A stretch of 64,000 bases of DNA from a virus. Its lineage: Duplodnaviria > Caudoviricetes. The DNA lies in IMG/VR virus record IMGVR_UViG_3300013947_000021, positions 1-64,000 of that record; one strand, written 5' to 3'. Positions 75 through 47,868 of the stretch are shown in pieces. The position numbers and the translations under genes are program-made. Position 1 is the first letter of the stretch. The number at the start of each line of letters is the position of its first letter. The notes beneath the pieces are model-generated. The model was given only the letters and a program-made list of their open reading frames with translations. It ran no database searches and had not been told where the DNA came from.

Positions 75-227
75 TTATTTTTTTTTTGATAAACTTTAAA
101 TGATTAAATATTAACTTTATTTAAAAACTTTAAACTTAGCAGGTAATGAAAATCAATCTTTTTAAACAAATTGTGAACAAAAAGTACGAAAAATATTGAT
201 TTCTACTTTATATATAACTTAAAATTA

Positions 228-349
228 AGTGTATGGAATATAAATATAAACTACATACATGATTATTTCTCCTAAATTTTATTAGTTTCGTTGTAAAGTA
301 ATCCTTAAATAATATCCCTAGAGGTTAATCGCCTCTAGGGATATTATTT
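228..349 (+). ncRNA. Candidate anti-SD small RNA 1
   Basis: AACT-N6-TA motif at 216-227; anti-SD/anti-AUG tract catgattatttctccta at 258-274; ends in hairpin 307-349; no ORF with an RBS on this strand. Confidence 0.4.
307..349. terminator. Bidirectional terminator hairpin
   Basis: aaataatatccctagagg / cctctagggatattattt perfect inverted repeat just past the stop of 353..1540(-). Confidence 0.85.
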
Positions 350-352
350 TGT

Positions 353-1540
353 TTATCTATTAGAATTATGAATTACTAATGCAAAATATAATTTAACAGC
401 TCTTTCATAAGAATTCTTTGTAGCCAATCTAGATCTACGTCTTACATATGCAGTACCAGATTCAGATAACCATTCTTCTATTATAGCTTTTAATCGTACT
501 ATCTCTTTCTGTTTTGCGTTTGGTTTCGGAGCAATAGTAAATGTAATAAAATTAATATCTGTAAGATCATTTTTTCCAGTCTCATAATATAATGCTATCA
601 TTATAGATATCAATTCTTTCATAGTAATAATATTATCTTTATTATTTACTATAGATTCTATAACGGCCTTGCATTCAGAAGGAGTAATATCAGTATTAGA
701 ACACATAGAGCATAATTTATATTCTACTCCATATGAATTTATATGATTAATAGTTGCTTCAGTAGCTTTACTAATTCTAAGTGTATCACTATCTGCAAGA
801 TGAAAATCATCAGCATCAAATGAATCTGACTGATAAGTGATATAAGAATCTTTATTATCATATACTTTATAATATTCAGTAGCTATATTCTTAATAAAAG
901 ATCCTATTCTAGAATAAAGCTGTTGAATAAGATATACAAGGTCTTCATCAGTATATGATTTAAATTTATCTTTATATGCATCAAGCCATGTACATCCTAC
1001 AGACTTTACAGCACCAATTACATTTCCTTTTGTTTTAAGATCAAATTTATTAGTAAGCTGATTATTTACTACATATTCCATTATATGCCTTACAGGAACA
1101 ACAAGAGGATATGATCTATAATGAAGAGAAGGATAAAACTTGCCAGAAAATGATAAATACAACATAGCAAGCTCAGCATCCTTGGGTTGCTTCTCTAGAA
1201 TGAAATAACGAATTATGCATTCCTGAAGTATCGTAAATTCGTGCTTTGCAGCAAGGGGTGTAAAATGATCAAGGTTTCCATAATAAGTTTCTTTAATAGC
1301 TTCAGTAACTTTTTCTTTAGGAATTTTTACAGCTTTAAATAAATTATCCATCTCAATTTCAGAACAGATTATTCTATCACAAGGTAATGTATCATAAAGA
1401 GCTTCTGCTCTTTTAGACATAAAATCATTTATAGCAGATTTATATGCATTCTTTATAGAAGAAGATTTCATAGCTTCTTCTACCAAAGGATAAAGTTTAT
1501 CTTTTATAGCAGTAGTATCTGCTTTATAACTTATTTTCAT
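353..1540 (-). CDS. Hypothetical protein, late-type promoter (start MKISY)
   Basis: ~395-aa ORF; GGAGG before ATG 1540; AACA-N6-TA at 1566-1577. Confidence 0.85.
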   Translation of the reverse strand: MKISYKADTTAIKDKLYPLVEEAMKSSSIKNAYKSAINDFMSKRAEALYDTLPCDRIICSEIEMDNLFKAVKIPKEKVTEAIKETYYGNLDHFTPLAAKHEFTILQECIIRYFILEKQPKDAELAMLYLSFSGKFYPSLHYRSYPLVVPVRHIMEYVVNNQLTNKFDLKTKGNVIGAVKSVGCTWLDAYKDKFKSYTDEDLVYLIQQLYSRIGSFIKNIATEYYKVYDNKDSYITYQSDSFDADDFHLADSDTLRISKATEATINHINSYGVEYKLCSMCSNTDITPSECKAVIESIVNNKDNIITMKELISIMIALYYETGKNDLTDINFITFTIAPKPNAKQKEIVRLKAIIEEWLSESGTAYVRRRSRLATKNSYERAVKLYFALVIHNSNR

Positions 1541-1610
1541 AGTAGCCTCCAATTTTATGATGTTTTATAAAAATGTTGAAGAATAAAAAATAAAGGAAAA
1601 ATAAAAAAAA

Positions 1611-1632
1611 TAGAGGGGCCGAAGCCCCTCTA
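1611..1632 (-). terminator. Terminator hairpin
   Basis: tagagggg-ccgaag-cccctcta followed by a T tract on the minus strand. Confidence 0.85.
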
Positions 1633-1648
1633 TGTATTGGTTATGAAA

Positions 1649-2080
1649 TCAAACATCGAGGATGTTGAACTTCATAACCAGCTTCAGTGCCTTATAAGCA
1701 CAGAAGATCATAGTGGGGATTCCTGCCCCACAAAGCAAAGTAAGCGGCATTGACTGCTCATTATATACATAAGCAGTCAACCCTATGAATAAAATCATCC
1801 CGATAATTGTTATCGAGATAACCAGGGGCGCTAAAGCTCGTCGGGCTTTAGCATTCATGCGAGCTTCTTTAAGAAGCTTTCTTTCTTCAGCAGCTTTACG
1901 CTGCTGCTGCAGCATTTTCTTGTTTCTTTCAGATCTTGCATTAATCTGAGCAAGTCTGATCCTTTCAGAATCCTCATGATTCTTCTTGTCGATAAGGCGA
2001 ATGAATTCATCGCCTTCCTGGTACCCCGTAATGGCAGCATCGTCAAAATCGATAAACGTTTTGTAATCCATGGCTTTCAT
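1649..2080 (-). CDS. Early membrane protein (coiled coil plus 2 C-terminal hydrophobic helices)
   Basis: 143 aa; AGGAGA RBS; early-type motif at 2169-2182; segments LVISITIIGMILFIGL and LTLLCGAGIPTMIFCAY. Confidence 0.8.
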   Translation of the reverse strand: MKAMDYKTFIDFDDAAITGYQEGDEFIRLIDKKNHEDSERIRLAQINARSERNKKMLQQQRKAAEERKLLKEARMNAKARRALAPLVISITIIGMILFIGLTAYVYNEQSMPLTLLCGAGIPTMIFCAYKALKLVMKFNILDV

Positions 2081-2194
2081 TTTTTATTTTCTCCTTTAAT
2101 TAAAAGTATAATAGTATATAGGACGATACTATTATACTGTAATATTTTGATACAAATTGGCATTGTATCACATTTATAATATACAATTATTAGA

Positions 2195-2806
2195 TCAGTA
2201 TATTACGGATTGTAATCCAAGTATATAATTTGAATATGCATACTCAGATGGTTTAAAATCCATAAATGATTCTACTACAATTTTTCCATGATCTCCCATC
2301 ATGGAAAATTTCTCCTCTTTATTATCTTTAAACCATCTATTCAGATCCTTAAATGGATCATTCGGGTTTAATGCTATAGACATGCCCAACCAATCACAAA
2401 GCATTTCCATTAATGCTACTGGATCTGTATCTATAGTAGAATGGAATTCTACAAAGTATTCAGGATGATGCCTATTAGTTTTATAATGATGAGCCCAAGC
2501 CTTTTTAAAGTTAGCTTTTACGAGTTCAGGATCTGATTCTTTAGCTTCTGCTTCTGTAGGATAGAATCTAGCTCTATAAGCATCAAATTCATCATGATAA
2601 TATTTACTCATATCATGTACATGAATAGCATCTAATATTTTCTTGATAAACATCTTCTTTGCTGGTCCATATTTATTGGCATAATTATTGAAGAAATCGA
2701 ATGCTAAATAGAATGCTTTCTCCACATTATTTCTATGATCATCTATATATTTCTTATACATAAAATTTGCTGTGCTAATATCTTTACAAATAGTTTCTTT
2801 AGACAT
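2195..2806 (-). CDS. HD-domain-like phosphohydrolase (DUF5662-like)
   Basis: Motifs H..NV, HDMSKY, WAHHYKTNRHHPEY, EMLCDW. Confidence 0.7.
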   Translation of the reverse strand: MSKETICKDISTANFMYKKYIDDHRNNVEKAFYLAFDFFNNYANKYGPAKKMFIKKILDAIHVHDMSKYYHDEFDAYRARFYPTEAEAKESDPELVKANFKKAWAHHYKTNRHHPEYFVEFHSTIDTDPVALMEMLCDWLGMSIALNPNDPFKDLNRWFKDNKEEKFSMMGDHGKIVVESFMDFKPSEYAYSNYILGLQSVIY

Positions 2807-2867
2807 GATAAATACATCCTTTCAAAACATATAATGCCAATAGATAAATTCTATTGGCATTATTAAA

Positions 2868-5696
2868 TTACTTTACTATTTCTACTGTGCAGTTCAAAAT
2901 CTTATTTCCACGTGTCTGAATGATCTTATTACCGGCACTTATGGAACTACCTAATTCCAAATCTGCGATTTTAATAATTTCCTTACCACCTACACTGTTA
3001 ACGTGTATTAAATCGTTTTCATTACCGCTTACTACACTAACAATTTTATCTCCAGATGATAATTTAATAAGATTAGAACCAGATTTTCCTCTTGCAGTAT
3101 TAGAAATTCCTCCAAGTACACTAATGCGATTCATTCTACCAGATTCTGTTATCACTACTATATCTGTGCATCCATTATAGATAACGCATATACCATCTAC
3201 ATAGTCTACATTAGACATAGCTTTAGATCCTTTGGTATTTCTCTTAAGATAAGGAATATCATTTACATTGATAACTATAGCTTTTCTATCAGAATAAATT
3301 ACTGTATTGAAATTACTATGAGCTATTACAATATCTTTAACGAAATCACCTTTATCTACTTTAGCATAAATAATACCAGAAGGCGGAACTGTTATAAAAT
3401 CATCAAGATCCATTCTCTTTACAAGTCCAGAGTTTGTAAGAGTTATAAGATAATGCTTATTATTATAAGCACCCTTACCTGCAAAATTCTTAACGACAGA
3501 TTCAGGGATAATCGTTGTTATATTTGCTGTAAGAGACTTAATCAAGAATCTTATATCTGTTCCTCCAGACGATTTATCAGAGAAAGGAATCTTATGAACA
3601 GGAAGCTTAAATACTTTACCCACTTCATCAAATATAAGGAGACTATCTGTATTATCTATCATGATAATCTTCTTAGTTACTCCATTCTTAGAAATAGGAA
3701 GATTAGAACCAGATGGAACTTTCATTACAAAGTTCTTATCTGTAATACCAAGAATCATTTCTCCCTTAGGAATATCCGAATCTGTATTAGCAGATATAAT
3801 AGGACAAGTTCTAGGCTTTCCATATTTTGCTTTGATAGCTAATAATTCTTCTCGAATATCATTTTCTATCATCTTCTCATTCATAGCATGAGACATAATA
3901 TTCTGACGTTCAATTTCAAATTCTTTAGCTTCGGACTTATACTTTTCAAGATAACCATATGAAAGTTTCTTTAAGTCTGAATTAATAATATACTGAGCTT
4001 GAAGATCAGTTATACCAAGTTTCTTAATAAGATACTCAATAAGAAAATTATCATCAACGGTCTTCTGTTTCTTAATTATATTGATAATATTATCAATCTC
4101 ACCAGATTCGAGTACTCTTATATATGCTTCACGTTCATGAATCTTAGTCTGAACCGCCTGAAGCATATTAGTATATACTCTGAATTTAGTAAGTTTTCTA
4201 AAATCAATAAAGCTAAGAAGATAAGAACGATAAGACATTCTAAGCGGTTTTAATCCATCAAGTGTTTCGAGATTAATTCTATTCATTTGCTCAAGAGAAG
4301 TATTCTTATAAATTACATCTTTTACATAATTAGGATCACTACCAGGCTTAAGAAGTATTACATATCTCATATTATCCACAGTAGATTCATCAAACATATT
4401 TTCTATCTGGATAAGTTTCTTTTTCTTAATAAGATCTTCTATCTTATCTACTATTCCATCAAGAAATGTAAGATTAGGACAACTCTTTATAATAAGTGCA
4501 GTCTTACCCTTATATTGCTCTATATCGATTTTTCCTCTAACTCTATAATGTCCAAACCCAAGATTACATATCTTTTCAAAATCTGTATTAAAGATTTCAC
4601 AAGGCATACAATGATCAGGAACGAGGCATATTCTAGCATTAGGATTATCCATAAGTGCAAGAGTAGCATCTATTACTTCATTAATATTATGACTAGGAAT
4701 CTCAGCTCTAAGACCAAGTCCAATTCCAAATGATCCATTAATAAGAAGTAACGGAACTTTTACAGGAAGATAATCGGGTTCAGTAGTAGCTTCATTATAA
4801 GTAGGAGACCAATCTACTGCTTCAGGAGAATCCATAATTTCTCCAAGTATATTTTCGATTGCAAACTTAGACAAACGGCATTCTGTATAACGAGAAGCAG
4901 CTTCTTTATCTCCTTGGAAGGTGCCAAAGTTTCCTCCACCATCTATAAGAGGTATATTTGTTTCAAACCAGTTAGCTAAAGGCTTTATAGTGCCGTATAT
5001 TGCAGAGTTATGCACAGATATAAACTCATCGCCATGAGTATCTACAGGTATGAGCATATTTTCTGTACCATTTACTGTAAAGTCATACATAGGTATTTCT
5101 TCAGAAATATTTGTAATATCAACATTTTTTACAGTAGCAGGATAGTTTGATTCAAAAATTCTATCATAAGATAAAAGTTTTGTTCCTTTAACAATATCTT
5201 TTGCCTGAATATACTTCAGTTTAGGAGTCATGAATGGATGATTTGATGTACAAACAATACATGCTCCATTAGTTAAAGATATATGATAAAGTTCCTTAGT
5301 CCATTGACCTATTCTGAAATTCGTAGCAACAGCAGGAACCACTTTTCCAGTATTAGGATCAATAGATAATATATCAAGTTTTTGCACATTATTTTTATAC
5401 AACTCTTCAATTGTATAAATTTTATTATCTAGTCCGTAAATCTTAGTAGAGCCATGTAAACAATCTGAATGCGGGTGGTAATATTTCATTACATCACCTA
5501 CAACTGCTGCTGACTTAACTCTACTTGTAATGGCTTTAGTATTCTTATACATAGCCCAAATTATTCGTCTTTGCACGGGTTTAAGCCCGTCTCTATAATC
5601 TGAAAGAACTCGTCTATATAAGATATATATACCATATCTTTTATAGTCTTGCTCAAATTGTTTATTTACTTCATTTGATAAAATCTTTTCAGCCAT
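2868..5696 (-). CDS. gyrA: Type IIA topoisomerase / DNA gyrase subunit A, intein-containing
   Basis: DGLKPVQRR, YHPHSD-[intein]-SAIY, catalytic AASRYT, LLINGSFGIGLG, IPSHNINEV, C-terminal pinwheel-like repeats. Confidence 0.95.
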   Translation of the reverse strand: MAEKILSNEVNKQFEQDYKRYGIYILYRRVLSDYRDGLKPVQRRIIWAMYKNTKAITSRVKSAAVVGDVMKYYHPHSDCLHGSTKIYGLDNKIYTIEELYKNNVQKLDILSIDPNTGKVVPAVATNFRIGQWTKELYHISLTNGACIVCTSNHPFMTPKLKYIQAKDIVKGTKLLSYDRIFESNYPATVKNVDITNISEEIPMYDFTVNGTENMLIPVDTHGDEFISVHNSAIYGTIKPLANWFETNIPLIDGGGNFGTFQGDKEAASRYTECRLSKFAIENILGEIMDSPEAVDWSPTYNEATTEPDYLPVKVPLLLINGSFGIGLGLRAEIPSHNINEVIDATLALMDNPNARICLVPDHCMPCEIFNTDFEKICNLGFGHYRVRGKIDIEQYKGKTALIIKSCPNLTFLDGIVDKIEDLIKKKKLIQIENMFDESTVDNMRYVILLKPGSDPNYVKDVIYKNTSLEQMNRINLETLDGLKPLRMSYRSYLLSFIDFRKLTKFRVYTNMLQAVQTKIHEREAYIRVLESGEIDNIINIIKKQKTVDDNFLIEYLIKKLGITDLQAQYIINSDLKKLSYGYLEKYKSEAKEFEIERQNIMSHAMNEKMIENDIREELLAIKAKYGKPRTCPIISANTDSDIPKGEMILGITDKNFVMKVPSGSNLPISKNGVTKKIIMIDNTDSLLIFDEVGKVFKLPVHKIPFSDKSSGGTDIRFLIKSLTANITTIIPESVVKNFAGKGAYNNKHYLITLTNSGLVKRMDLDDFITVPPSGIIYAKVDKGDFVKDIVIAHSNFNTVIYSDRKAIVINVNDIPYLKRNTKGSKAMSNVDYVDGICVIYNGCTDIVVITESGRMNRISVLGGISNTARGKSGSNLIKLSSGDKIVSVVSGNENDLIHVNSVGGKEIIKIADLELGSSISAGNKIIQTRGNKILNCTVEIVK
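5007..5462 (-). mobile_element. Mini-intein (152 aa, no endonuclease) in GyrA
   Basis: Starts CLHGSTKI; block B CTSNHPF; block F YDFTV; ends VHN followed by Ser; removal restores HPHSD|SAIY. Confidence 0.93.
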
Positions 5697-5770
5697 TTTA
5701 AATTAACCTCCATAAATTTATTAAGCTGTTTACAAAAATATAATATGCAATCATATTACTATATAAAAAA

Positions 5771-5805
5771 TAATTCCAGAGGATCAAAACGATCCTCTGG
5801 AATTA
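5771..5805. terminator. Terminator hairpin
   Basis: taattccagaggatc / gatcctctggaatta. Confidence 0.85.
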
Positions 5806-5877
5806 ATTATTGATATTCAATCTATGGAATTAAGTGAATTTACTAATATGTACTATGATATTTAAAAATTTATTTAA

Positions 5878-6294
5878 TTATGCATCCATTGCATTAACAA
5901 TTTCAAACTTATTAACAGAAAGAACAGTGCCTTCCTTATTAGTTCTAAATCTCGGTACAAGAACCATATCCTTAAGCTCTTCAGCAATATGCATATTCTT
6001 ACCAAAGAACATCAGATTTGCATTCTTACCATCAAGATCGATAGACTTAATAACAGCTACATCAACAGTTCCCTTTGCATCCGGAATGCCAAAAGCTTTA
6101 TTCTTTGCCATAGAAACAGAAATATTAATAAGTCCAAAGATATCAAAGTCTACAAGCTTATTAATAAGATCCATTGCAGAATCATAGTTGTAATCATTTC
6201 CCTTGAAATCCTTACCAGAAACTACAAGCGGGATCGATGCATTAGCAACTTTAGGTGTGAAATTCTTCTTCTGATTGTTATTAGTGTACGGCAT
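5878..6294 (-). CDS. Hypothetical protein
   Basis: 138-aa ORF with AAGGAG RBS. Confidence 0.8.
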   Translation of the reverse strand: MPYTNNNQKKNFTPKVANASIPLVVSGKDFKGNDYNYDSAMDLINKLVDFDIFGLINISVSMAKNKAFGIPDAKGTVDVAVIKSIDLDGKNANLMFFGKNMHIAEELKDMVLVPRFRTNKEGTVLSVNKFEIVNAMDA

Positions 6295-6378
6295 TTTAAT
6301 ATAAACTCCTTAAATATAAAAATAAATTTATTTAGTTTGATCGTAAAGGATCAACTTAATATTTCGTTAATAAATAAA

Positions 6379-7074
6379 TTACTTATTAATATTTACCAAT
6401 TTTATTTTTTCATATTCTTCTTTAGATATTTCTTTATATCCATAATAATCATCATTATCATGATCATCTTTTATAAAATATCTACCAATTTCTATTCTTT
6501 CATTAGTAGGTTCTTTAATAGCATAATCAACAAATATTACATAATCAGAATCTTTAGCATCTAGAGTTAATAATATTTCTTCATAACAAACTCTATATCT
6601 AGCATTAGGATAATAGGGCAATGTAATCGGATACATTTCATCTATTATAGCATTTAATAATGCAAATGAATGTGGAACTTCACTATCATCATTTTTCATA
6701 ATACCATAAGTTCTATATATATCACGATATTGTACTCTACCATCTTTATAAATTCTTTTAGTTAAAGCCGAAAATCTAATAGAACTATATGCATCATAAT
6801 TAAATTTATCAATAGTATAATCATATTTCCATTCATCAGTTTCTTTAATAGGAGAAAGCGGTTTTCTATCTATTAATTGATTTAGTATTGTTTTTGTGTC
6901 CTGTATAGAAAAGAGGGTATGATCATCAGCATATAATGCTTTAATAGCTTTTAGAGCAGATTCGTAGCATCCTTTAATATATTTAAAGTCAATGTTTTCA
7001 TCATCATCATAAGATTTTTCTAATTCATTTATTTTATATGCTACTTCATTAGTTGCCCATTCTAAAGTATTCAT
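6379..7074 (-). CDS. Hypothetical phage protein
   Basis: 231-aa ORF with AGGAGA RBS. Confidence 0.8.
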   Translation of the reverse strand: MNTLEWATNEVAYKINELEKSYDDDENIDFKYIKGCYESALKAIKALYADDHTLFSIQDTKTILNQLIDRKPLSPIKETDEWKYDYTIDKFNYDAYSSIRFSALTKRIYKDGRVQYRDIYRTYGIMKNDDSEVPHSFALLNAIIDEMYPITLPYYPNARYRVCYEEILLTLDAKDSDYVIFVDYAIKEPTNERIEIGRYFIKDDHDNDDYYGYKEISKEEYEKIKLVNINK

Positions 7075-7840: not shown

Positions 7841-8115
7841 TTTTTATTTCTCCTTTTTCTTCATATACCTAAAGTATATGCATATTAGTGTACTTGTATT
7901 TTATACATCTAATATGGTATTCTAGTAACGTAGGGTATTTGCTAAATGAAACTACTGTATCCATATATAGTCAGTATATGGAGAGATGTATTTTTATTAT
8001 ACATCTTCTTTATTTCATAATTATATTATATAAATAAAATAATAGAATATTGCAAAATAGATAAAGATATAGAGATAAAAAATAAAAGGGATGAGTAATA
8101 CTCATCCCTTTATTC

Positions 8116-11100
8116 TTACTCAATATCTACCTTACTTATTACAGTATCTCTTAATAAAGAAGCCATAGAGTTATCTATATGCCTAAGATTTTCTATTTCT
8201 TCTTTAGCACTTTCCATAGTATATCTTATAAGAGTTCTATCACCATCTGGACGTAATGCAGATACTCCAAGCTGTTCAGGGTTCTGCTCACCTAATCCTT
8301 TATATCTTGTTAATCCAGGAGGCATCATCTCATTAAACTTGCTCATAAGATTATATATAGAAAGCTTTTCTCCATCTACCAAATAATATAGATCTGTATT
8401 GTTCTTAATCAAATCTATAATATCAGTGCAGACATTAATAAGCTTACTATTAATAAATACATACTGATATTTAGAATTGACTAATCCTTCTATACATATA
8501 ACTCCATTATTCTCATAAACTTTAATAAATCTATAAAGCTTAGTAAGATAAGTAGAGAATTTCTTTATACTAAAAGTAGATTTAAATGAATAAGAGATAT
8601 TAGTTGCTACAGAATTCTGACTAATCGGAATAGCTTCATCCGAAATATTATCTTCATCATCAGATTCTGCAGGCTTAATATCATCTACTATCTTAGTTTC
8701 TTTAGTACTAGTTGTCTTTTTAGTAGATTTAGTTGCTGCTACTTTCTTTTTTGCTAATTTTACTTTTGCAGCCATTGCAGTAACTACTTCACTTGTTCCT
8801 ATATTAATATAATTACAGAGATAATAGAATATATTCTCAAGTAAGTCAGGATCTACTGCAAATGTATTTGCTGCAACTTCAATCTTTTCTTTGTAATCAA
8901 TATTCTTAAAGAATAATGCTGTGACTTCACTATTAGAAAGCTTACGTCCATTCATATCTGTAAGAGTATGTGTCTTTGCAAAGAGAGATTGAATATATTT
9001 TGTAAAATCAAGTTTTGTAGTAAAGTATTTATTACCAGATCTATCCTTAACTCCAAAGAGTGGAGGAACAGCTCTATATACTTTACCAGCACTAATAAGC
9101 TGTGGCATATACATAATAAAGAATCTTAATAGAAGCGTATCAATGTGGGAACCCATTTATGGGAGTCATATAAGCTCGTTAAACTTATACCGTTTCATTA
9201 TTGAAACTGCTATACATTATTTATTCTGTATAGATTAGACTATATCTCATTCTTTTTAGTTTATATAAACTAATGAAGATCTCTCAGTTTCCATCCACTT
9301 GGATGTACTCTACTCAGTTACTCACAGAAATTTATTCTGTTACCTTTTCGATAGTCGTTGAACCCTTCCTAAGAATTTCTCCTAGGCTCGGCTACTGATT
9401 GCCATAATATATTTTTATATATTAAAGTTCCCTGTAATTAAGAGAGGATTATTTTCATAGTATTTCTACTAAGCCGGACAGTCCCACTTGTTTATCCGGA
9501 TCTGCATCTGCTAAGAATATTATCTTATCAAACTTTACTTTATCAAGATCAAAGTTCTTACCATATCCACCACCAATTATTGTTATAATAGAAGAGATTT
9601 CCTGATTTGAAAGGAATTTTGCTTTGCTTTCTTTAAAAGCATTGGGAATTTTTCCACGAATCATTTATTGTTTTCTTTGTTCACATAGTTCGCTACACTA
9701 TGCAGTTCTCTTATGAACTTCTCTAGTATTTCTCTAGATGATCAGACTATATCACAATCCATATAAAATATTTTATATGGATTCCTTTTATTTCGGACTC
9801 GCTTGAACCCTACTCTACTCAGTTATTCACAGAAGATTATTCTGTTATCCTTTCGATAGTCGTTGAACATTTCTTAAAGTTTCCTTTAAGTTTAGTTGCT
9901 GATTATGCATTATTAGTGATACTTAGAGTTTCCTCATATATTATCTCATAACTTGTTTCTGACTTTCGTCTCCATATATGGCATATGAGCTTTAGCAACT
10001 TCCAGCATTAAAAAGGTTTTCTATCACCGTTACCGATAATAGCCCCATTCGTTCTAGGGAATATTCCTTGGCAGGATGCATCTCTACTATTCTTTGCTGA
10101 ACCTAGTGCTGAATCACCCTCAACTATAATAAGTTCATTATTCTTATTACTAGAAGGAGACACATATTTCTTTGGCTTACCAGAGAGAGCACTAGCTTCA
10201 TAATTATTTGATAGCTTTATCTTGCTATCATCAGACTTCATTCTTATTTCTGCTACTTCTTTTATACACTTGCAAACTTTCTGTAAGTCTCCAGGAGAAG
10301 TCTTAGACCAATTATCCAAAGAAGTTAATGTAAGATTTTTTACATATCCATACATATCTTCATTAGATAATATACCTTTAAACTGTCCTGCAAATATAGG
10401 ATTTAAATGTGCTGCTGCAACAATAGCTTTTAAGCCAGTTTTGATATCTGTATTAATTACAGATATCTTTGATTTTTCTCCAAGATATATCTTATTCATA
10501 TAATTCCTGAAGAACTGACAAAGCCCATCAATAAATCCATTTACATGAGTACCATCAGTTGTAGGTGTATAGTTTGCATAACTTACAATATCTTCAGATG
10601 CTGTAAGATCAGAAGCATCATAAGTAAATGCAATTTCTGCTTTCATTGTACCAGTATCATCTTTAAAATGAACTGGAGTTATAAGAGGAGTTTTGGTTCT
10701 CATAAATAGAGAAACCATAATACCATCAGTATTAACTAACTCTTCCTGATACTTTATATCACCCTGCTTATTAATTCCTTTAAATGTGATCTTATCACCT
10801 ATATCTGTCAGAGGATATACTTTAAGAATAAGATCAAGTACATCTTCACAAGTGAGAGTAATCTCGCCAAGAACAGATACATCAGGAGCCATATAAACAG
10901 TTGTACCCTGTCTGCCAGGAGGACAAGGAATATCTTGTTCTTCTTTAGTAGCAGGAACGCCATAATCAAATCTTAAATATTTTGCTTTACCTAATACATA
11001 AGAATATATTTCAAATTTACTAGATAAAGCCATTGCTACACCAGAACCTACACCATGCACACCTGAAGTGTACTGATATAATTCCTTAGTATAGTTTGAA

Positions 11101-14242: not shown

Positions 14243-14298
14243 ATTGTTAAGATTCCTCCTAAAATCATTATTTTCTACATTTATAATATATAATCATA

Positions 14299-19351: not shown

Positions 19352-20506
19352 TTAGTTGACTTCACTTAAAATAGACTTAAGTTTTTGAACAGTAATAAAT
19401 TCTTCACCTTTATTATGATTAATAAAGGATACAAATTTAGATAATGGATCCATACCAGGGTCAAGCAGGAAATCTAGATCAGAATATTTATTCTTAATTT
19501 CTTCAGTTGTATTAACCTGAGGATCTTTATTTACATATCTCTTTATAGATACATTTTTGTAATTAGCATAGTATTCTTCAATAACTTTCTGGCAAACTTC
19601 ATTGTTTAAATTTGAAAAATCTATCCTAATATTATCTATTCCATTAGCTAATAACTCATTAAGATATTGAATGATATTATTAGGATCATTATACTGAAGA
19701 GTGTTAATATCAATAGTATCATATCTGAATGATTTAATTGGAATAAAATTAGTTACATGCTTAGACATAACTTTATCATGTAATACTATTAAGAATCCTT
19801 TTTCTTCTTCTTCACCAAACTTATATCGAACAGGATTCGAACAGTAATACATATATCCATTTAAGCACATTGCTTTATGAACATGACCACAAATAATAGG
19901 GCCCTTGCAATTAGTAAAATTTTGTAAAGAAAATACAGGATACTTTTTAGAATCGAGATCTTCTTTATTAGCTCCAAATACAGATCCTACCATTGTGCCA
20001 TGAACAAATGCTGTATCATACATTCCAGAATCATATAATAAATTTTCATAATAATCTTTTCCTTTATTATATTCTTCTGGTAAGCAAAGTATTCTTAAAC
20101 CTTGAGCATATATAAATTGAGCATTTTCTACTATACGTATGTCTACACTTGCGTCATCTGGTTCATTAAATATTCTTATTTGCCCACAATCGTGACTTTC
20201 TGTACCAGCAATAATGATTAGTGTAGCAAACTTCATTTCACATAATTCTTTGCATCTTTTAACAAATTCTATTGCATAATATACTGCATCAGAATTTGCC
20301 ATAAACTTTCTATCAAATATATCTCCATCGATAGATAATATATCAAAATCCAATTTACTAATTGGATCTAAAAATTGTTCTTTTAAAATATTATATTCTG
20401 TAGCAGGATCTACACATCCAAAATGTATATCTGCTATATGAATTTCTAATACATGATTTTTCTGCTTTGATGATTCATAATATTTCATTGTAATTCCCTC
20501 ATTCAT
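19352..20506 (-). CDS. SbcD/Mre11-like metallophosphoesterase nuclease
   Basis: DIHFG, GDIFD, GTESHD, FVHG, GHVH. Confidence 0.85.
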   Translation of the reverse strand: MNEGITMKYYESSKQKNHVLEIHIADIHFGCVDPATEYNILKEQFLDPISKLDFDILSIDGDIFDRKFMANSDAVYYAIEFVKRCKELCEMKFATLIIIAGTESHDCGQIRIFNEPDDASVDIRIVENAQFIYAQGLRILCLPEEYNKGKDYYENLLYDSGMYDTAFVHGTMVGSVFGANKEDLDSKKYPVFSLQNFTNCKGPIICGHVHKAMCLNGYMYYCSNPVRYKFGEEEEKGFLIVLHDKVMSKHVTNFIPIKSFRYDTIDINTLQYNDPNNIIQYLNELLANGIDNIRIDFSNLNNEVCQKVIEEYYANYKNVSIKRYVNKDPQVNTTEEIKNKYSDLDFLLDPGMDPLSKFVSFINHNKGEEFITVQKLKSILSEVN

Positions 20507-20509
20507 TAA

Positions 20510-20617
20510 AATAATAAGCTCTAGAGATATTTAATCTCTAGAGCTACGCATATATGCAAGGAGAACAAAAACTCGTGGATTTTTAAAAATATATTAATGG
20601 AGGATAATATATTTTTT
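20510..20617 (-). ncRNA. Candidate anti-SD small RNA 2
   Basis: AACT-N6-TA at 20617-20628; 12-bp hairpin with UCCUCCAU loop; second UUCUCCUU tract; terminator 20517-20545. Confidence 0.42.
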
Positions 20618-20663
20618 ATATAAAAGTTATTAATATATTTTTTATTAATATAAGCCGTAATCA

Positions 20664-21236
20664 TCATAAAACATCATATTTATGCTTCTCCAAATATCTA
20701 TAATGTCTACACTCATCTAATAATTTTACAAATTCAGTAGTTATGATTTCTATACATCTGTTTACCACAGCAATATCAACAGTTCCTACATCTTCCATAG
20801 TCCATTCATTATTTTTAAATGTATAAGATAATGCATATGAGTCATCATAAGATTTCTTTAATTGAATAATAACCGTCATATTATTAAAATTTGCTTTTAA
20901 AGATAAAATTAAGTCATCTTTAGTAATTACAAATCCATATGAACTTGCAGAATATCTTTTAGATGAATATATTCTTGAATCCATATTATTTTTATAATTG
21001 TAAATAAATTCAGCACACTTGATAAAATTGGACATTTCTTTTATAGTAAATATATCTGGACTTCCTTTTAATAATGACTTTTTTATATTTTTAAATTCTT
21101 TAATATATTTAATTTTCTTAAATATATTATTAGCACTCTCTATTTTATAAAGAATACTTACAAATCTATTATCAGATATTGAAAAATCTTTATAATTTTC
21201 TGTATAATCGTCAATTACATTATTAGATCTTTTCAT
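20664..21236 (-). CDS. Hypothetical protein
   Basis: 190-aa ORF, translationally coupled to upstream ORF. Confidence 0.7.
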   Translation of the reverse strand: MKRSNNVIDDYTENYKDFSISDNRFVSILYKIESANNIFKKIKYIKEFKNIKKSLLKGSPDIFTIKEMSNFIKCAEFIYNYKNNMDSRIYSSKRYSASSYGFVITKDDLILSLKANFNNMTVIIQLKKSYDDSYALSYTFKNNEWTMEDVGTVDIAVVNRCIEIITTEFVKLLDECRHYRYLEKHKYDVL

Positions 21237-37603: not shown

Positions 37604-37903
37604 TTAATTATTTATAAACTCTTTATCTTTTATAAGACAATAGTAAAGACTATTATCTATAGTAGATAAATGAGTTAATAAATTACCATTTATAGTAATT
37701 CTATATGTTTTTGAATCATCTGGTGCTTCATTTCGTATTAGTTGTCTTATTTCTTCTGAAGTATATCTATGACCTTTATAGTGCTTATATACATCCATAG
37801 TATTTATATCATATTGAATACATTTACCAGTAATAATATTATCATCAATATTTTCACTAGTATGAAAGAAATCTATGCTTGGACTATAAATAGGTCTACC
37901 CAT
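37604..37903 (-). CDS. Hypothetical protein
   Basis: 99 aa; RBS AGGAGAAATAATC-ATG. Confidence 0.7.
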   Translation of the reverse strand: MGRPIYSPSIDFFHTSENIDDNIITGKCIQYDINTMDVYKHYKGHRYTSEEIRQLIRNEAPDDSKTYRITINGNLLTHLSTIDNSLYYCLIKDKEFINN

Positions 37904-40787: not shown

Positions 40788-40844
40788 TTTTTATTTCTCC
40801 TTTTATTTATAATTTTTAGAGAGGTATTATAATACCTCTCTATA

Positions 40845-41564: not shown

Positions 41565-41583
41565 TTTTATTCTCCTTTGGATA

Positions 41584-42292
41584 TTAATTTCCATAAAGAT
41601 GCTTTCTTTGATATTTAATAGTATCAAAACTATCTATACCATAATTCCATTTATATTTAAATAAATTAATTGGATAATCTAAGAACTCTTCAAATGAACT
41701 AGTTTTTGAATTCTTCATTATATTTGATGGCCTTTTAAATAATCTTTCATCTGAGAACATTGCTTCTATTATATTACCATTTTCAGATTCATCTATTGCA
41801 GAAGCAATAGATTTATTTATTTTTAAAACCTCATTACTTATTGTAACAACAATTTCTGTAGCAAGAAATTGAATTGACATAATGATATTAAATCCTGCAG
41901 CTTTATATTTGATACAAATAATATCTAAACCAGAATTTTGGCCATTATATCCATTAGACTCTTTATTACAAAAAAATAGGCTTCCATCTAAATATTACAT
42001 CATAATGATTATCAAGATTGGATGTAATTGTAGATATGAATTCATAAATAATATTTGATCTAGAATTAAATTCTTCATTTCTATTAGTAAACAAAGATGT
42101 TTCAGAATCTAATCTAAATATTAATGTATTTACTAAATTTTCCTTTTGATTAATTGGAATAATTTGTGATGCAGTATCTACTAATATATTTACTACATCT
42201 TTTACATTTTCTTTACAATAATAATTCCCACTACTAAGAGTAGTGAGCATAGCTTTAGGAATATGATAAGCCCTTTCAATATTTGCGATCAT
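41584..42292 (-). pseudogene. Tandem paralog family member C, frameshifted at a T7 run
   Basis: ORFs 41966..42292 and 41584..41880 join if the run at 41970-41976 is one base shorter; LIFRLDSETSLF; IIEAMFSDERLFKR. Confidence 0.7.
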
Positions 42293-42305
42293 TGTATATT
42301 TCTCC

Positions 42306-42923
42306 TTATTTATTATTTACTATCTTAAATTCAGTTGTAGTATAAAAATCATAATTAGAAAGAAGATTATTGGTATAATTAACCAGGCTCTGATAATTCT
42401 GTGTTTCACTATATTTTTTAATCTCTCTATCTATTTTAAAACAATTCTTATTCATTTTTAATTGTTTTAATACTTCATAATCTACAAAATGTTTATTTTC
42501 ATCGGTGCATTTATAATTGACAAGTTCAATAAAGATTTTTCCATTTTCATATAAAATTGATATAGATGCTGTACCTAACGTATTGAATTTAATATAAATA
42601 TTATTATCTGGATTAGTATATATTGTCATTCTTTTATAACTATTATCATCTGTACAAAGTAAATTTCTCATATACTTAATAATTGTATCGCATATAATAT
42701 TACGATATTTTTTGTAATTCACTGCAAAATTATTCGTATTCTTTTCGATACAATTTATCATATTATCAAGGTCAGATTCGATAAATTTAATTGGAGTTAT
42801 ATTTGATGCTATTGATATAATTTTATATATCAAGTCCTTCAATCGATCCTTATCAAAATGCTGAGGATCCATCATGATTTTAGTTACGGGCATAACCTTT
42901 TCTGTTTTTAAAATTGCGTACAT
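42306..42923 (-). CDS. Diverged paralog family member D
   Basis: IISIASNITPI and MINCIEKNTNNF echo the family N-terminal motifs; early motif 42968-42981. Confidence 0.65.
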   Translation of the reverse strand: MYAILKTEKVMPVTKIMMDPQHFDKDRLKDLIYKIISIASNITPIKFIESDLDNMINCIEKNTNNFAVNYKKYRNIICDTIIKYMRNLLCTDDNSYKRMTIYTNPDNNIYIKFNTLGTASISILYENGKIFIELVNYKCTDENKHFVDYEVLKQLKMNKNCFKIDREIKKYSETQNYQSLVNYTNNLLSNYDFYTTTEFKIVNNK

Positions 42924-43036
42924 ATTTTTATTTCTCCTTTTATTTAGCTATTTTATAATAGCTTATTCATAAAAATAATATCTAATTAATAAAAAATATA
43001 GAGAAGTAGAATAGTCTACTTCTCTTTTAATTTTAA

Positions 43037-44716
43037 TTAAAAACTAGGATTTGACATTTTTGATTCATCTTCAGGAAGACAAAGAGTCAAATTATATAGG
43101 CTCTGCATAGCTTCCTTATCTGAAGTTCTAACACCTTTACCACCTAAATTAAATAAATGTGATTTAGACGATAACTGTTTATCAAGTTCAGCATTAGCCT
43201 CTTCTGAATATACTCCCTTTACAGTAACCTGGTCACCATCATAGTCACCACCTATACCATCAAGGTAAAGGTTACTAATATTAAGAGTATCGATAAAGCT
43301 ATTAGATGTATTACTACCAATATCAGCTTGTGTAATATAAGGATAATTCTTATAATATTTATTTCCAACTACCATAGGAGTAGTTTTATTAGTAGAAGCT
43401 ATACGAATTCTAGTAGGATACTGGTTAAAATAACTATCTATAGGATATCTGGTAATAAGAATATGCTTATCAGCAGTTGCTTCAACTGCAGCCATATAAA
43501 GAACATCACACCATGTAAGATCTCTATCCTGTATAGGATATTTACTTAAATCAGCTTTATTAGCAAAATCTTCTGCACTAACATCTCTTCCTTTAAATCT
43601 AAGTCTAACGACCCGTCCTTCAATAGTAGGAACTTCTATAGGAATAAATCTATTGGAGAATCCAGTACAGAATCTATCTATTTCTTTTTTGATTCTTTCA
43701 TCAGAGAACTCTATTTGATAATCCTTAGGATGAAGATACTTAATAGTATTATCTTTATCCATTGTAGGAATTACAGAGTCACCGGAGAATTCATTCTCAA
43801 AGAATCTTCTTACATGATACATTATAAATGGTAAGAAGTTTACACATGCCGATGCTAAAGGAAGAACCGAATAATCCAAATCAGCTTCAATATCATCAAG
43901 TTTTTCAACTTTTAATTCAGGAGCAGAAAGGACAAGACGAGAAGCATAGTCTGTAGTCTTAGACATGACACTCATTCTAAGTACACCAAGTTTACCAGGA
44001 ATGACATCAGAAGTCTTTTCACCATTAATGGTTGTGCCAGAACCAAACCAGTCATATATCTGAGTTAAAGTTTCCTGAATACGACCTCTAGTAGCATCAG
44101 ACAAATTCAATCCATAATCAGCAGATTCTCTAAGTGCCTTGACAAAAACTATAAGATTTCTATAAAGTTCATTTATTGCTCCAATAGCAACCTTTCCTTT
44201 ATCATTATTGACATCTCTATAGAATGCTGGACATACAATAAATTTCTTTATAAGCATCTGAGGAGTTCCCATATACTTTTCAAGAAAATTCACCTGCATA
44301 TCTCTACGCTTAGAGCTTGTACGCTTAAGCTTGAATTTATCTATATTCTTAATAAGAAACTTTATTCCAGTTTCTCCATTAGGATCTTCTTTAAGTTCAC
44401 CATTATCAGTAATAGTAAACCTTCTGATTCCATGAACACAATATTTTATACCAGAATCACTCTTGCACCACATTTTATAGATAAGAGGATTTATAAAAGT
44501 TTCATAAAGATCTATATACGCAAAAGTATTAGCCCTGTCATATTTAGTAATTCCAAAAATCTCATTAGAAAGTAATCCATCAGGACTAGGAACTCCATTT
44601 CTAACAAAAAATACTGGATTAGTGACTTCTCTCAAATTATTTACTTCAACAAGTTTATCAGGATCAACGAGATCGACTCGTAAATGCTTACCACGGAAAA
44701 TTTCATCTGCGGGCAT
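43037..44716 (-). CDS. Phage multisubunit RNA polymerase beta' N-terminal/catalytic fragment (probably virion RNAP)
   Basis: PDGLLSNEIFG, PAFYRD, GKLG..R..VMSK.TDYASR.V, ITRYP, catalytic GGDYDGD; CACA-N6-TA late-like motif 44735-44746. Confidence 0.88.
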   Translation of the reverse strand: MPADEIFRGKHLRVDLVDPDKLVEVNNLREVTNPVFFVRNGVPSPDGLLSNEIFGITKYDRANTFAYIDLYETFINPLIYKMWCKSDSGIKYCVHGIRRFTITDNGELKEDPNGETGIKFLIKNIDKFKLKRTSSKRRDMQVNFLEKYMGTPQMLIKKFIVCPAFYRDVNNDKGKVAIGAINELYRNLIVFVKALRESADYGLNLSDATRGRIQETLTQIYDWFGSGTTINGEKTSDVIPGKLGVLRMSVMSKTTDYASRLVLSAPELKVEKLDDIEADLDYSVLPLASACVNFLPFIMYHVRRFFENEFSGDSVIPTMDKDNTIKYLHPKDYQIEFSDERIKKEIDRFCTGFSNRFIPIEVPTIEGRVVRLRFKGRDVSAEDFANKADLSKYPIQDRDLTWCDVLYMAAVEATADKHILITRYPIDSYFNQYPTRIRIASTNKTTPMVVGNKYYKNYPYITQADIGSNTSNSFIDTLNISNLYLDGIGGDYDGDQVTVKGVYSEEANAELDKQLSSKSHLFNLGGKGVRTSDKEAMQSLYNLTLCLPEDESKMSNPSF

Positions 44717-44780
44717 AATTTCACCTCCAATTATTAATAATATGTGGAGTTTCTAAAAGATAAGAGTGAGCCCATTGGGC

Positions 44781-45086
44781 TCACTCATTTTCATTGACTA
44801 TATTTAAAGTTATAGCATTATTATCTATAGTAGCATTAATTATATACATCGATCCATATGAAATAAAATGCATACCATTAATAAAACTATATACTCTATT
44901 TGCATCCAGTATATTATTATAAATAATAATATACTCATCTGTTTCTTTCTTATAATCTAATGAATAATCAGAATCAAGTAAATGATATAGCATCATTATC
45001 TTATCAAAAAGATTTCTAATAGAATATGCTATAGTATCTTGATTATTCATGGTCTTTGTTATATTAATACAATCAAATTGATTCAT
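44781..45086 (-). CDS. Hypothetical protein
   Basis: 101 aa; GGAGG upstream. Confidence 0.65.
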   Translation of the reverse strand: MNQFDCINITKTMNNQDTIAYSIRNLFDKIMMLYHLLDSDYSLDYKKETDEYIIIYNNILDANRVYSFINGMHFISYGSMYIINATIDNNAITLNIVNENE

Positions 45087-45094
45087 TTTATTTA

Positions 45095-45343
45095 TTAACC
45101 TCCTTCCGCCATTTCTTCTATGGCATCTTCCAAATCATCTTCTGATATATTAGATAATGAAGGAGATTTTGGAACTTCATCAGTTGGCTTATATGTATTA
45201 TACCTTGCATTATTCTTATTTAATTCTTGCTGTTTTGCTTTTCTTTCTTCTTCTTTAGCACGTTCCTTTTGAACTTCAGAACGAAGGAATACTATTTTAT
45301 AAAGAGAATGAATATCATCAAATGGAGCATTTAGCATATCCAT
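45095..45343 (-). CDS. Small ORF; probable -1 frame extension of the upstream gene
   Basis: Frame stays open upstream to ~45439, overlapping the end of 45391..47235. Confidence 0.55.
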   Translation of the reverse strand: MDMLNAPFDDIHSLYKIVFLRSEVQKERAKEEERKAKQQELNKNNARYNTYKPTDEVPKSPSLSNISEDDLEDAIEEMAEGG

Positions 45344-45390
45344 TATAGATATTCTTCCCTTTAAAAATGAAGCAATAGATTCAACTAGAT

Positions 45391-47235
45391 TTACATACTC
45401 TGAATAGCTGCCAACTGATGCCGTGTAAAAAGCAAATTCTCAGGTGCAATATTTGCAGTCTCAGCAATCTGTTCTGCGCAGTCAGGGCAAGTTGCTCCAG
45501 GAATCTTATAGGTAACTGCATTATTATTTTCATCAAATTCATTAACCTTACCTCTAAGATTAAAGAACTCATCAGAAGTAAACTTATTGATTATATTATC
45601 AATATAAGTAGCAATACGTCTTGCAGAAGTCTTAGCAAGATCATTAGTAACAGGCTTGGTATTAATAGGCACAAGCATCTGATGATCAGGATCGATAAAG
45701 TAAATATTATCGATATAAGAAATAAGATCAATCATATCAGCATACTTTTCAAGGAATTTATCACTCAAAGCAGCAACTTCAATAGTTACATTCCAAATAC
45801 TAGGATGACGAAGTGCAACAGCATAGTTATCAGAGATCTGGAAGAGTTCAGATTCACCAAAGTCCTTAGCAGGAGCATTAGTATCCTTCTTACAGAACAT
45901 TTCTACATTATGCTTTACTTCATCACTAGCATAAGAAACCATATCATCAAAATTAACTTCTTTGATAAACATCTTCTTGCACTTAGAATTGGGGCATTCA
46001 TATGTAATGAAGTTACTATTAGCAAATGTAGCCTTATAGAGTGCAAAATAGATATGAGCAAGATCACTAAATCTAGTAGTCTTAAGCCAAGTTTCATAAT
46101 TCGGCTTAGACTTGTCTATAATATGATCATAGATAATACGATAAATATCTTTAAAAGTATTAAGTCTATTTCTAGTACTATTTGCAGGATTGAGTTTAAG
46201 AATTTCAGGACCAGAAAGGCCAGAAACAGAGATAGCCTTCTCTGCGCCATACATCATCCAGTCAGCAACATTGGGAACTGCTACAGTCTTATTGGCAATA
46301 ATCATATTAGCCTTTTCAGAGGTAATAGACTTATTTGCAATAGCAAACTTACTAAGATCAAACTTACTCTTTATAATAAGCTTACCTTCAAGCTCATTCT
46401 TGAGTTCCTTAATAGTCTCCTCTTCAGACTTTTCAGCAGTACCATCAATATCATATTCATCATCAGTATTATCATCATCGTCATCAAAGAGAGAAGAATT
46501 ACTTACTCCATCAAGAATATCAGTATCAATCTTCTTTTCAGGAACATGAACAGGCGTATCAGATACTGCAGAGGTTGATTCAGTAACAACTTTATTTTCA
46601 ATAGGATTATATGATACAGCCTTAGTAGAAATATGAATAGTATCAGGTTCTATTGTATTACCATGATTAGCATCAGTCTCTATTGTATCATGATCATATG
46701 AATCAGTATTAATACTATTTAAATCATCAGTATTGATATGAGGCTGTTTAATAGGTTCCTGATAATTATACTCATCAGAAGATGCAGTTTCAATATCTAC
46801 AGTATCAGTAGAATCACTAAAATTAAAATCCTCATTAGAAACATTATCAGATACCATATCATCAATATCCTTATAAGTTTTTGCAGATTCCTTTTCTTCC
46901 ATCTCTGCATCTCTCTTATCAAGGATTGCATCCATCTGGGATCCCATTTCTGCCTTAGTTCTATCGAGAGCTCTATCAAGATCTGCAAAGATATCAGTAT
47001 CAGGAGTAATAGCTTCTGACTTTACAGGAGTCTTCTTAGGGAAGAACTTATTAATATCTTCCGGAGACATTTCACTAATATTGGAGCTCTTAACAGGACC
47101 ATTATTAGTAGTAGGGATACGATTTACCATATTATTAATATCATCTACAGAGGCAGAAATATTGCTAGATCTTACAGCACTTCTACCTTCTACATTAGAA
47201 CCTCTAATTTCATTAAGGGAAGAGTTCTTTTCCAT
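45391..47235 (-). CDS. Putative baseplate-hub/tail assembly chaperone with two Cys pairs and acidic N-terminal half
   Basis: CPNSKC and CPDC; ends ENLLFTRHQL; downstream of the gp25-like gene. Confidence 0.55.
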   Translation of the reverse strand: MEKNSSLNEIRGSNVEGRSAVRSSNISASVDDINNMVNRIPTTNNGPVKSSNISEMSPEDINKFFPKKTPVKSEAITPDTDIFADLDRALDRTKAEMGSQMDAILDKRDAEMEEKESAKTYKDIDDMVSDNVSNEDFNFSDSTDTVDIETASSDEYNYQEPIKQPHINTDDLNSINTDSYDHDTIETDANHGNTIEPDTIHISTKAVSYNPIENKVVTESTSAVSDTPVHVPEKKIDTDILDGVSNSSLFDDDDDNTDDEYDIDGTAEKSEEETIKELKNELEGKLIIKSKFDLSKFAIANKSITSEKANMIIANKTVAVPNVADWMMYGAEKAISVSGLSGPEILKLNPANSTRNRLNTFKDIYRIIYDHIIDKSKPNYETWLKTTRFSDLAHIYFALYKATFANSNFITYECPNSKCKKMFIKEVNFDDMVSYASDEVKHNVEMFCKKDTNAPAKDFGESELFQISDNYAVALRHPSIWNVTIEVAALSDKFLEKYADMIDLISYIDNIYFIDPDHQMLVPINTKPVTNDLAKTSARRIATYIDNIINKFTSDEFFNLRGKVNEFDENNNAVTYKIPGATCPDCAEQIAETANIAPENLLFTRHQLAAIQSM

Positions 47236-47259
47236 TTTATTAACCTCCATAATCTAATT

Positions 47260-47649
47260 TTATAGATCAGCTAAATGTGTAAATTTACTTACAATAGTTT
47301 GAGCAGCACTATTATAAATGAATCCATATATAGTACTATCTATCTCTATTGTAATATATATTGTTTCTTTATCTTGATTTACATTTACAGATGCAGACTG
47401 ATAATCTGGTAAATATGTAACAATCTGTTTCTGTATATCTTTTTTTAAATTGCTTACATTTATTCCATTTACGCTATACATGTATTTAGAATAAAGTCCC
47501 ACACCCATTTCCGGATGCGATTGAATGGTTCCTGACTCAAGTAGAAGTAATCTTGTTAAAAGTACTGCTACTGCTTCAGGATTTTTATATACCTTTGGAT
47601 TTTCGAAATCATCAATAGAAAAAGAGTATTCTTCTGATATAGTAGCCAT
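47260..47649 (-). CDS. Baseplate wedge subunit (T4 gp25/GPW-like)
   Basis: LLLLESGTIQSHPEMGVGL motif; size; late motif 47684-47695. Confidence 0.65.
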   Translation of the reverse strand: MATISEEYSFSIDDFENPKVYKNPEAVAVLLTRLLLLESGTIQSHPEMGVGLYSKYMYSVNGINVSNLKKDIQKQIVTYLPDYQSASVNVNQDKETIYITIEIDSTIYGFIYNSAAQTIVSKFTHLADL

Positions 47650-47737
47650 TATATCACCTCTTTTTAATTAATTTAATATTTTTTAATACTTTGTTGTAGA
47701 TTTTAAAATATACAGACTTTTGATAAAACATATAAAT

Positions 47738-47868
47738 AATATACTAATATAAATTATTCACCTACATAAAGCCAAAATTATTTTCTTTTAATTCATATTT
47801 TCTTCTTTTCATTTTAACCTCCTTTTTTATATATAGAGAGATAGCGTTTTGCTATCTCTCATGCTTTT
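47738..47868 (+). ncRNA. Candidate anti-SD small RNA 3
   Basis: AACA-N6-TA at 47727-47738; pyrimidine tract ending cattttaacctcctttt; hairpin 47836-47860 followed by T-rich tail. Confidence 0.42.

Follow-up and report, generated by a model that had tools for sequence, protein, structure and literature searches.

Three intergenic loci in the DNA analysed here (the window, which is the first 64 kb of the single 221,227-bp virus contig IMGVR_UViG_3300013947_000021, about 29% G+C, from an uncultured AR9-like giant (jumbo) phage) are tentatively read as genes for short non-coding RNAs that would be made late in infection and act by pairing with translation start sites. Each locus, here called units 1 to 3, consists of a late-type promoter motif, a stretch without an open reading frame (ORF) led by a ribosome binding site (RBS), a C/U-rich tract complementary to a Shine-Dalgarno (SD) sequence, and a terminator; an earlier note on this DNA had described this architecture, and we found it present at all three loci. 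The sequence anatomy of units 2 and 3 was confirmed as robust both statistically and comparatively, and the support for unit 1 is weaker. Our data also support the view that the anti-SD content, with or without a neighbouring CAU, is non-random, conserved in relatives and mostly predicted to be unpaired. The making of the RNAs, their pairing with mRNAs and the choice of those mRNAs are what we infer from these sequences.

In the mechanism that we favour, the non-virion RNA polymerase of the phage would use the AAC(A/T)-N6-TAA promoters to transcribe the units late in infection, and the transcripts, ended by intrinsic terminators, would be non-coding RNAs of about 105-130 nucleotides (nt) that belong to a set of about ten units in the 221-kb genome. 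Each RNA would display one or more copies of the 3' tail of 16S rRNA (CCUCC or CUCCU) in a loop or single strand, often with a CAU placed 5-8 nt upstream of the copy, which would make it the mirror of a whole translation start site. By pairing with the SD and start-codon region of mRNAs the RNAs would keep 30S subunits off and lower translation; because they mirror the ribosome start sites on messages, they probably damp translation.

Late promoters and anatomy of the units

All statistics are based on a map of 222 genes covering 91% of the contig, obtained with a simple dicodon and RBS caller. Over the whole 221-kb genome the density of the motif AACA-N6-TA in intergenic DNA was about 6.6 times that in coding DNA, and the motif was spacing-specific, with 50 intergenic copies of AACA-N6-TAA versus 1-11 at spacings 3-9. 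For AACT-N6-TAA, the corresponding counts were 23 versus 6-12 at control spacings. The late motif stood 14-70 nt ahead of a start codon in 57 copies, and the base after TA was an A in 56 of the 57 canonical copies. The late promoter of AR9 is given as AACA-(6N)-TA/G, transcription starting at the last base (PMC5312081), and the AACA-N6-TAA motif is a genuine late promoter of this type in the present phage. Units 1 and 2 have T at position 4 of the motif (AACT), as do about 13 canonical promoters of the genome. The three RBS classes that the earlier note had matched to the three units are real, with AGGAGAAAT found before 18 genes, GGAGGATAA before 7 and GGAGGTTAA before 5, and CAU does accompany the anti-SD tract in two of the three units, as claimed (unit 1, position 258, and unit 3, position 47810). 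No SD-led ATG was found on the unit strand of units 1, 2 or 3. All three end in a G+C-rich hairpin with a U run behind it, an arrangement that in units 2 and 3 is confined to the unit strand. For unit 2, unit 3 and most of their homologues the C/U-rich seed was predicted to be exposed, either in a loop or as single strand (P unpaired 0.6-1.0 for CCUCC).

Unit 3 (47738-47870, plus strand) has an AACA-N6-TAA late promoter at 47727..47739 with a predicted start at 47738. The predicted RNA (47738..47870, about 130 nt) holds no ATG-, GTG- or TTG-led ORF behind an SD and begins with about 70 nt of A/U-rich sequence, after which comes an anti-start module at 47810..47823 (CAU at 47810-47812, 5 nt, then CCUCCU, with CCUCC at 47818-47822) that is predicted to be fully unpaired (P 0.99-1.00). 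The intrinsic terminator (47836..47860, with its U run at 47861-47870) operates on the plus strand only. Further downstream, an endonuclease-like gene (47920-49440) has its own proximal late promoter (47881..47893, plus strand), which is kept in five lineages, and because of this separate promoter unit 3 is not the sole leader of that gene.

We compared the units with uncultured jumbo-phage contigs found by protein-anchored searches. The unit 3 arrangement was present in all five lineages with an endonuclease-like protein 53-57% identical (the window, L099, L100 (=L001), L101 and L104 (=L017)), each of which has intact AACA and TAA elements and a 98-198-nt body that leads to a terminator, with the proximal late promoter following. 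Upstream of the terminator each carries one to three CAU-N5-8-CCUCC(U) or CUCCU modules, giving 10 antisense modules versus 1 sense module for the five lineages together, and the terminator stems and the spacers have been replaced among them. The CCUCC was predicted to be unpaired with a probability of 0.6-1.0, above the mean of the respective RNA, in four of the five unit 3 RNAs. More distant relatives are without unit 3, and a scan of viral contigs with its 129-amino-acid (aa) neighbour found no relative.

Unit 2 (minus strand) has an AACT-N6-TAA motif at 20616..20628, preceded by the 12-mer AAAAATATATTA, and a predicted start at 20617. A 5' hairpin formed from +2 onwards (20585..20616) presents CCUCC (20603..20599) inside an 8-nt loop with a predicted unpaired probability of 1.00 (0.9-1.0 across unit 2 and two look-alikes), a second anti-SD tract, CUCCU (20559..20563), lies in a single-stranded stretch ahead of the terminator, and the intrinsic terminator with its U run (20508..20545, hairpin 20545..20517) is found on the minus strand only. 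The site adjoins a metallophosphatase-like gene, upstream of it, in the window and in relatives, and in most relatives at 53% identity or more it consists of a late promoter right after the upstream stop codon and a short body closed by a terminator. The window, L038 (lineage G001) and L070 all have a hairpin at +1 whose loop carries CCUCC, on stems of unrelated sequence; the counterparts in L035 and L069 have a C/U-rich loop and a single compensatory double change between them (G-C to A-U), and CUUCCU or CUUCC tracts occur in L038 and L035 at the same place as the second tract of unit 2.

Unit 1 (227-356, plus strand) has an AACT-N6-TAA motif at 216..228 with a predicted start at 227. We scored the unit promoters with a core-only matrix, and this one ranks at the 7th percentile among canonical late promoters and at the 94th among coding-region matches. 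The predicted RNA (227..356, about 125 nt), which has no SD-led ORF on its own strand, carries an anti-start module at 258..273 (CAU, 8 nt, UCUCCU) and a second C/U tract, UCCUU, at 302-306, ahead of a hairpin at 307..349 with 19 pairs (6 of them G-C) and a T run after it. This hairpin has the form of a terminator on both strands and serves a 395-aa gene on the minus strand as well as unit 1; relatives keep a terminator at this position. Positional analogues with a conserved late promoter exist in G001 and G005, two of the three lineages most closely related, where the promoter opposite the 395-aa gene runs for about 110-135 nt into the two-way terminator of that gene, with CAU and a C/U tract ahead of the hairpin. 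A promoter-to-terminator scan found no analogue in the third close lineage or in distant relatives.

A genome-wide set and mapped late starts of AR9

We searched the 221 kb for late motifs with no gene within about 90 nt and with a terminator on the same strand, without using anti-SD content as a criterion. This search recovered all three window units and about ten orphan units in total. The further units (referred to below by numbers such as U4) lie at genome positions 166493-166315, 166670-166524, 202456-202345, 203666-203447, 123249-123090 and 138619-138520, all on the minus strand, and from 221119 to the contig end on the plus strand. Orphan terminators had a late motif upstream in 8 windows of sequence, versus 0-4 at control spacings. 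Defining a module as an SD pairing of -6 kcal/mol or better with an ATG at the right distance, we counted 10 antisense modules versus 1 sense module in the unit bodies (1,076 nt from start to terminator). Dinucleotide-type shuffles of these bodies gave 1.4 +/- 1.1 modules, and none of 300 shuffles reached 10. The density of antisense modules was 9.3 per kb in the units, versus 1.15 per kb in other intergenic DNA (about 8-fold lower), much of it in phase-variable cassette leaders, and 0.43 per kb in coding antisense. CAU stood 3-12 nt 5' of 8 of the 15 C/U cores, versus 23% of random windows. The scan of the genome and relatives and the comparison with shuffled controls, both proposed in the earlier note, gave about ten units in the genome, unit 3 in five lineages and an enrichment outside the shuffles.

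The same note had spoken of a family. The view that they belong to a larger genome set of what are best read as short late non-coding units is supported, but units 1, 2 and 3 are not homologous to one another, so that "family" here means shared design and not shared descent. Rfam gave no match at gathering score in the window and none at E <= 0.1 in eight related loci, and a blastn search with two regions against a phage collection gave none. Neither G001 nor G002 has a counterpart of U4 or U5 beside the same gene.

AR9 provides mapped transcript starts for comparison. We compared the AR9 genome (KU878088) with Table S3 of PMC5312081, in which the late start 75478 on the minus strand, mapped by differential RNA sequencing (dRNA-seq) and listed as "antisense g090", has a step height of 3757, among the highest of the table (PMC5312081). 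In the genome sequence, CCUCCU lies at +6 of the RNA from this start and a 16-bp terminator spans +24..+64, for a predicted length of about 75 nt, and opposite to this RNA lies an unannotated SD with a 21-codon ORF overlapping the start of g091 (L027, AR9 75485-75550). Other mapped late starts that meet a terminator within about 100 nt are 115851(+), 139024(-), 167158(+) and 203990(+). Since terminators soon follow these mapped starts, AR9 makes short, terminated late RNAs of the unit design, with starts mapped and ends predicted. The 75478 RNA resembles the units in its AACA-N6-TA promoter, its origin in the same phage group, CCUCCU near its 5' end and its intrinsic terminator; unlike them it is shorter and has the anti-SD at the very 5' end, and it is not homologous to units 1-3 in sequence or position. 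In addition, the AR9 leader from start 59871 (59871-60040) contains AAUCCUUCCC, which over 10 nt is complementary to the SD of the leader's own gene, g075, and by its sequence could sequester that SD. The authors did not read the 75478 transcript as an anti-SD RNA, and the text of PMC5312081 that was read has no mention of the SD-led 21-codon ORF or of the anti-SD in the g075 leader.

Targets, counter-evidence and rival explanations

Several results weigh against the reading of the loci as genes for trans-acting anti-start-site RNAs. The longest exact complements between the units and phage start sites were 11-17 nt, and comparing start sites with one another gave a best match with a median of 12-13 nt, reaching 17 nt or more in about 9%. 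A specific phage target was rejected on this basis, since the matches of the units to phage start sites equal the baseline between start sites. The earlier note had proposed early phage mRNAs among the targets to be shut off; this preference was not borne out, as the duplex energies of units 1-3 with early and late operons were alike (p = 0.33, 0.42 and 0.63) and the best match of unit 1 was a 17-nt exact complement to the start site of a late gene (37604..37903). U4 alone leaned to early-gene start sites (p = 0.011, uncorrected). Pairing in cis with the downstream SD was also rejected, cognate duplexes being no stronger than non-cognate ones in five lineages each, with no co-variation. Because the target, early-gene and downstream-gene tests were negative or neutral, the anti-SD tracts look like generic copies of the 16S tail and not like antisense tailored to a phage gene; phage late mRNAs use the same SDs, and therefore a general anti-SD RNA would hit them too.

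On the same side of the balance, the unit promoters lie at the 2nd-37th percentile of canonical late promoters, although at the 85th-99th of coding-region matches. The earlier note had cautioned that the promoter motif is short and arises by chance in AT-rich DNA; AACA-N6-TAA shows a spacing-specific excess, and for the noisier AACT of units 1 and 2 chance would account for about 40% of the copies in intergenic DNA. The hairpin of unit 1 doubles as the conserved terminator of the neighbouring 395-aa gene. A 48-codon ORF (20521-20667, minus strand) traverses unit 2 into its terminator; it has no SD, begins upstream of the predicted start of the unit, encodes a low-complexity product and overlaps the stop codon of gene 20664..21236 as ATGA. 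The positional homologues of unit 2 in L036/L037, L039 and L072 lack an anti-SD tract, as do, as far as a clear tract is concerned, the G001 counterparts of U6 and U7. A CAU beside CCUCC is equally expected from a real start site on the other strand, and in G002 the site of unit 3 is occupied by an ordinary 60-codon gene on the other strand, which may show the ancestry of the mirrored start sites. This gene (L018, 1100-1303) has hairpins on both flanks.

The units could also be transcribed without any role in trans, as leaders, attenuators, long 3' untranslated regions or insulators with structural or incidental C/U tracts; in unit 2 the late start would then meet a terminator just ahead of the following gene, and in unit 3 ahead of the following promoter, which would tune read-through or shield the neighbours. 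We regard this as unlikely, though as the most serious of the rivals. Unit 2, U8 and U9 do lie within same-strand gene arrays, 74-136 nt past a stop codon and with the following gene immediately behind them. Promoter and terminator persist in positional homologues, the anti-SD tract not always, and in AR9 there are both late starts that run straight into terminators (167158 and 203990) and, at 59871, a leader complementary to the SD of its own gene. Against it, downstream genes have promoters of their own. Besides the late promoter at 47881 past unit 3, these include promoters of a second class, ATATTAT-N6-G, usually followed by AA, which in about 25 intergenic regions points towards a gene 30-100 nt away and which is the counterpart of the AR9 early promoter. 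Such a motif is found at 20516, where the U run of unit 2 overlaps the early-like promoter of gene 19352..20488, and after U4 and U9. Moreover, the cognate duplexes described above were no stronger than the non-cognate ones, and incidental tracts would not yield a 10:1 strand bias or conservation together with CAU.

If the opposite strand were instead the functional one, the tracts would be real or decayed translation starts (of mini-ORFs or remnants of lost genes) and the promoter motifs would be due to chance, an explanation that we consider distinctly improbable. The earlier note had foreseen this alternative. The mini-ORFs exist as sequence: opposite unit 1 there is only one of 11 codons behind AGGAG (225..260, minus strand) and opposite unit 3 only one of 16 codons behind AAGGAGG (47762..47812, minus strand), each the mirror image of the unit module, with a perfect SD-spacer-ATG geometry at 260 and 47812. 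The minus strand of unit 1 also has a late-like motif (353..342, with TAT, not TAA) just before the hairpin and mini-ORF, and the 60-codon gene of G002, the 21-codon ORF of AR9 and the chance rate of AACT point the same way. What speaks against a product of this strand is that at unit 3 the peptides range from 10 to about 43 codons across relatives without any similarity, whereas the SD-ATG geometry is constant, and that no promoter is conserved on the mirror strand across the five lineages. Opposite-strand peptides were not conserved among relatives, as those of small-protein genes would be, and the mirrored ORFs do not form the conserved small hydrophobic toxin ORF of a type I toxin-antitoxin pair, being short and in part basic, with a length and sequence that vary from relative to relative. 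All the neighbours of U4, U6, U8 and U9 lie on the unit strand, and therefore nothing would transcribe the mirror strand there; in units 2 and 3 the U run stands behind the hairpin on the unit strand and not on the other, the hairpin of unit 1 being two-way, and no start codon lies opposite the CCUCC of unit 2.

A cis-antisense arrangement, in which the late RNA would pair perfectly with an early transcript of the opposite strand bearing the mirrored start and so shut off that early message late in infection, seems to us just as improbable. Phages offer a precedent in the sar RNA of phage P22, which acts on ant. In the present phage, unit 3 has minus-strand early-like motifs (ATATTAT-N6-G) around it, at 47896 and 47742, and the AR9 75478 RNA is antisense to the SD of the small ORF overlapping the g091 start. 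However, a late promoter that continues with ATAT creates a pseudo-early motif on the other strand, the two motifs around unit 3 are such mirrors of late promoters, and they are missing in L099 and L104; the reverse complement of the unit 3 promoter itself is early-like in this phage alone. No opposite-strand promoter was seen for U4, U6 or U8, and the mirrored ORFs are tiny and unconserved.

Known systems, other elements and implications

The reading of the loci as genes for anti-start-site RNAs places them beside several known regulators. The CiaR-dependent small RNAs (csRNAs) of Streptococcus pneumoniae are several unlinked RNAs of 87-151 nt per genome, all of which can pair with both the ribosome binding site and the AUG, and the csRNA-comC pairing has been proven with compensatory mutations (PMC4507080). 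Like units 1 and 3, they present a mirror of SD plus CAU; unlike the units they are bacterial, homologous to one another and under one response regulator, whereas the units are phage-encoded, would depend on a phage RNA polymerase, cannot be aligned together and are known here from sequence alone. LhrC of Listeria monocytogenes, RsaE/RoxS and RNAIII share with unit 2 the layout of an exposed C-rich seed, but the LhrC/RsaE motif is UCCC (PMC4132741) and that of the units a full copy of the 16S tail, CCUCC or CUCCU, and we found no sequence or Rfam relationship between these RNAs and the units. Streptococcal csRNAs, LhrC and staphylococcal RsaE/RNAIII lower translation by pairing with the SD and start region. 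Our best reading, by analogy, is that the units form a design class that resembles csRNAs and LhrC in presumed action and lies outside any described family.

Among phages, sar of P22 and c4 of P1/P7 are small RNAs that cover an RBS and block translation initiation. Each of them has one defined target, located in the same immunity region; the units, in contrast, are about ten, dispersed and preceded by late lytic promoters, and the sequence tests defined no target for them.

Other elements were recorded alongside the units. Examples of the early-promoter motif lie at window positions 14291, 30690, 35081, 42981 and 57173, with about 20 more genome-wide. Ordinary gene terminators stand 4-20 nt past stop codons and many are two-way palindromes; they lack a C/U tract, and the possibility that such a tract is a general terminator feature was rejected. 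The 12-mer AAAAATATATTA has six intergenic copies versus about 0.6 expected (window 9412(-), 20589(+), 20612(-), 20638(-) and 53311(+); genome 166691(-)). In two cases, unit 2 and U5, it lies exactly 2 nt 5' of the late promoter of an orphan unit, and it may represent a third class of promoter or else an upstream element of promoters. Several long intergenic regions contain copies of two short hairpin-plus-tail elements, in some cases beside early promoters (window 7983-8007, 9324-9340 and 9829-9845; genome 120957, 124348 and 141219). Outside the window, the convergent intergenic region at genome 95992-96295 has overlapping early and late motifs on the minus strand (96143/96137) and, about 90 nt past them on the same strand, a very strong SD with an 11-codon ORF starting at 96033; unlike the other units, it is thus a sense-strand mini-ORF unit. 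The U7 counterpart in G001 (L022, 1148-1500) is a G+C-rich region of about 350 nt without an Rfam match, which has a predicted strong fold (-101 kcal/mol), an early-like promoter and a strong terminator. The contig end (genome 221150-221227) contains a direct repeat of about 35 nt, and relatives have 16-19-nt tandem repeats a few hundred nt past the unit 1 analogue (L002, 4400-4555, and L003, 4480-4570); these may be iterons or terminus-related sequence close to the contig ends.

A bolder extension, which we put forward as unlikely but worth stating, is that AR9-like jumbo phages carry a dispersed battery of late small RNAs that copy the 16S tail on which mRNAs dock, often along with the initiator anticodon triplet, and that reprogram initiation throughout the cell in the late phase of infection, for instance through the silencing of SD-led messages from the host or from early genes. 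If true, this would be a phage-borne, RNA-based translational switch without a described counterpart. Should the RNAs prove inert, the units would still stand for a recurring combination of promoter and terminator that annotation pipelines overlook. In jumbo phages with their own RNA polymerases the control of transcription timing is known and that of translation almost unknown, and conserved late RNAs mirroring start sites would offer a direct, testable handle on it, besides assigning a function to abundant "antisense" late transcripts in the published AR9 data.

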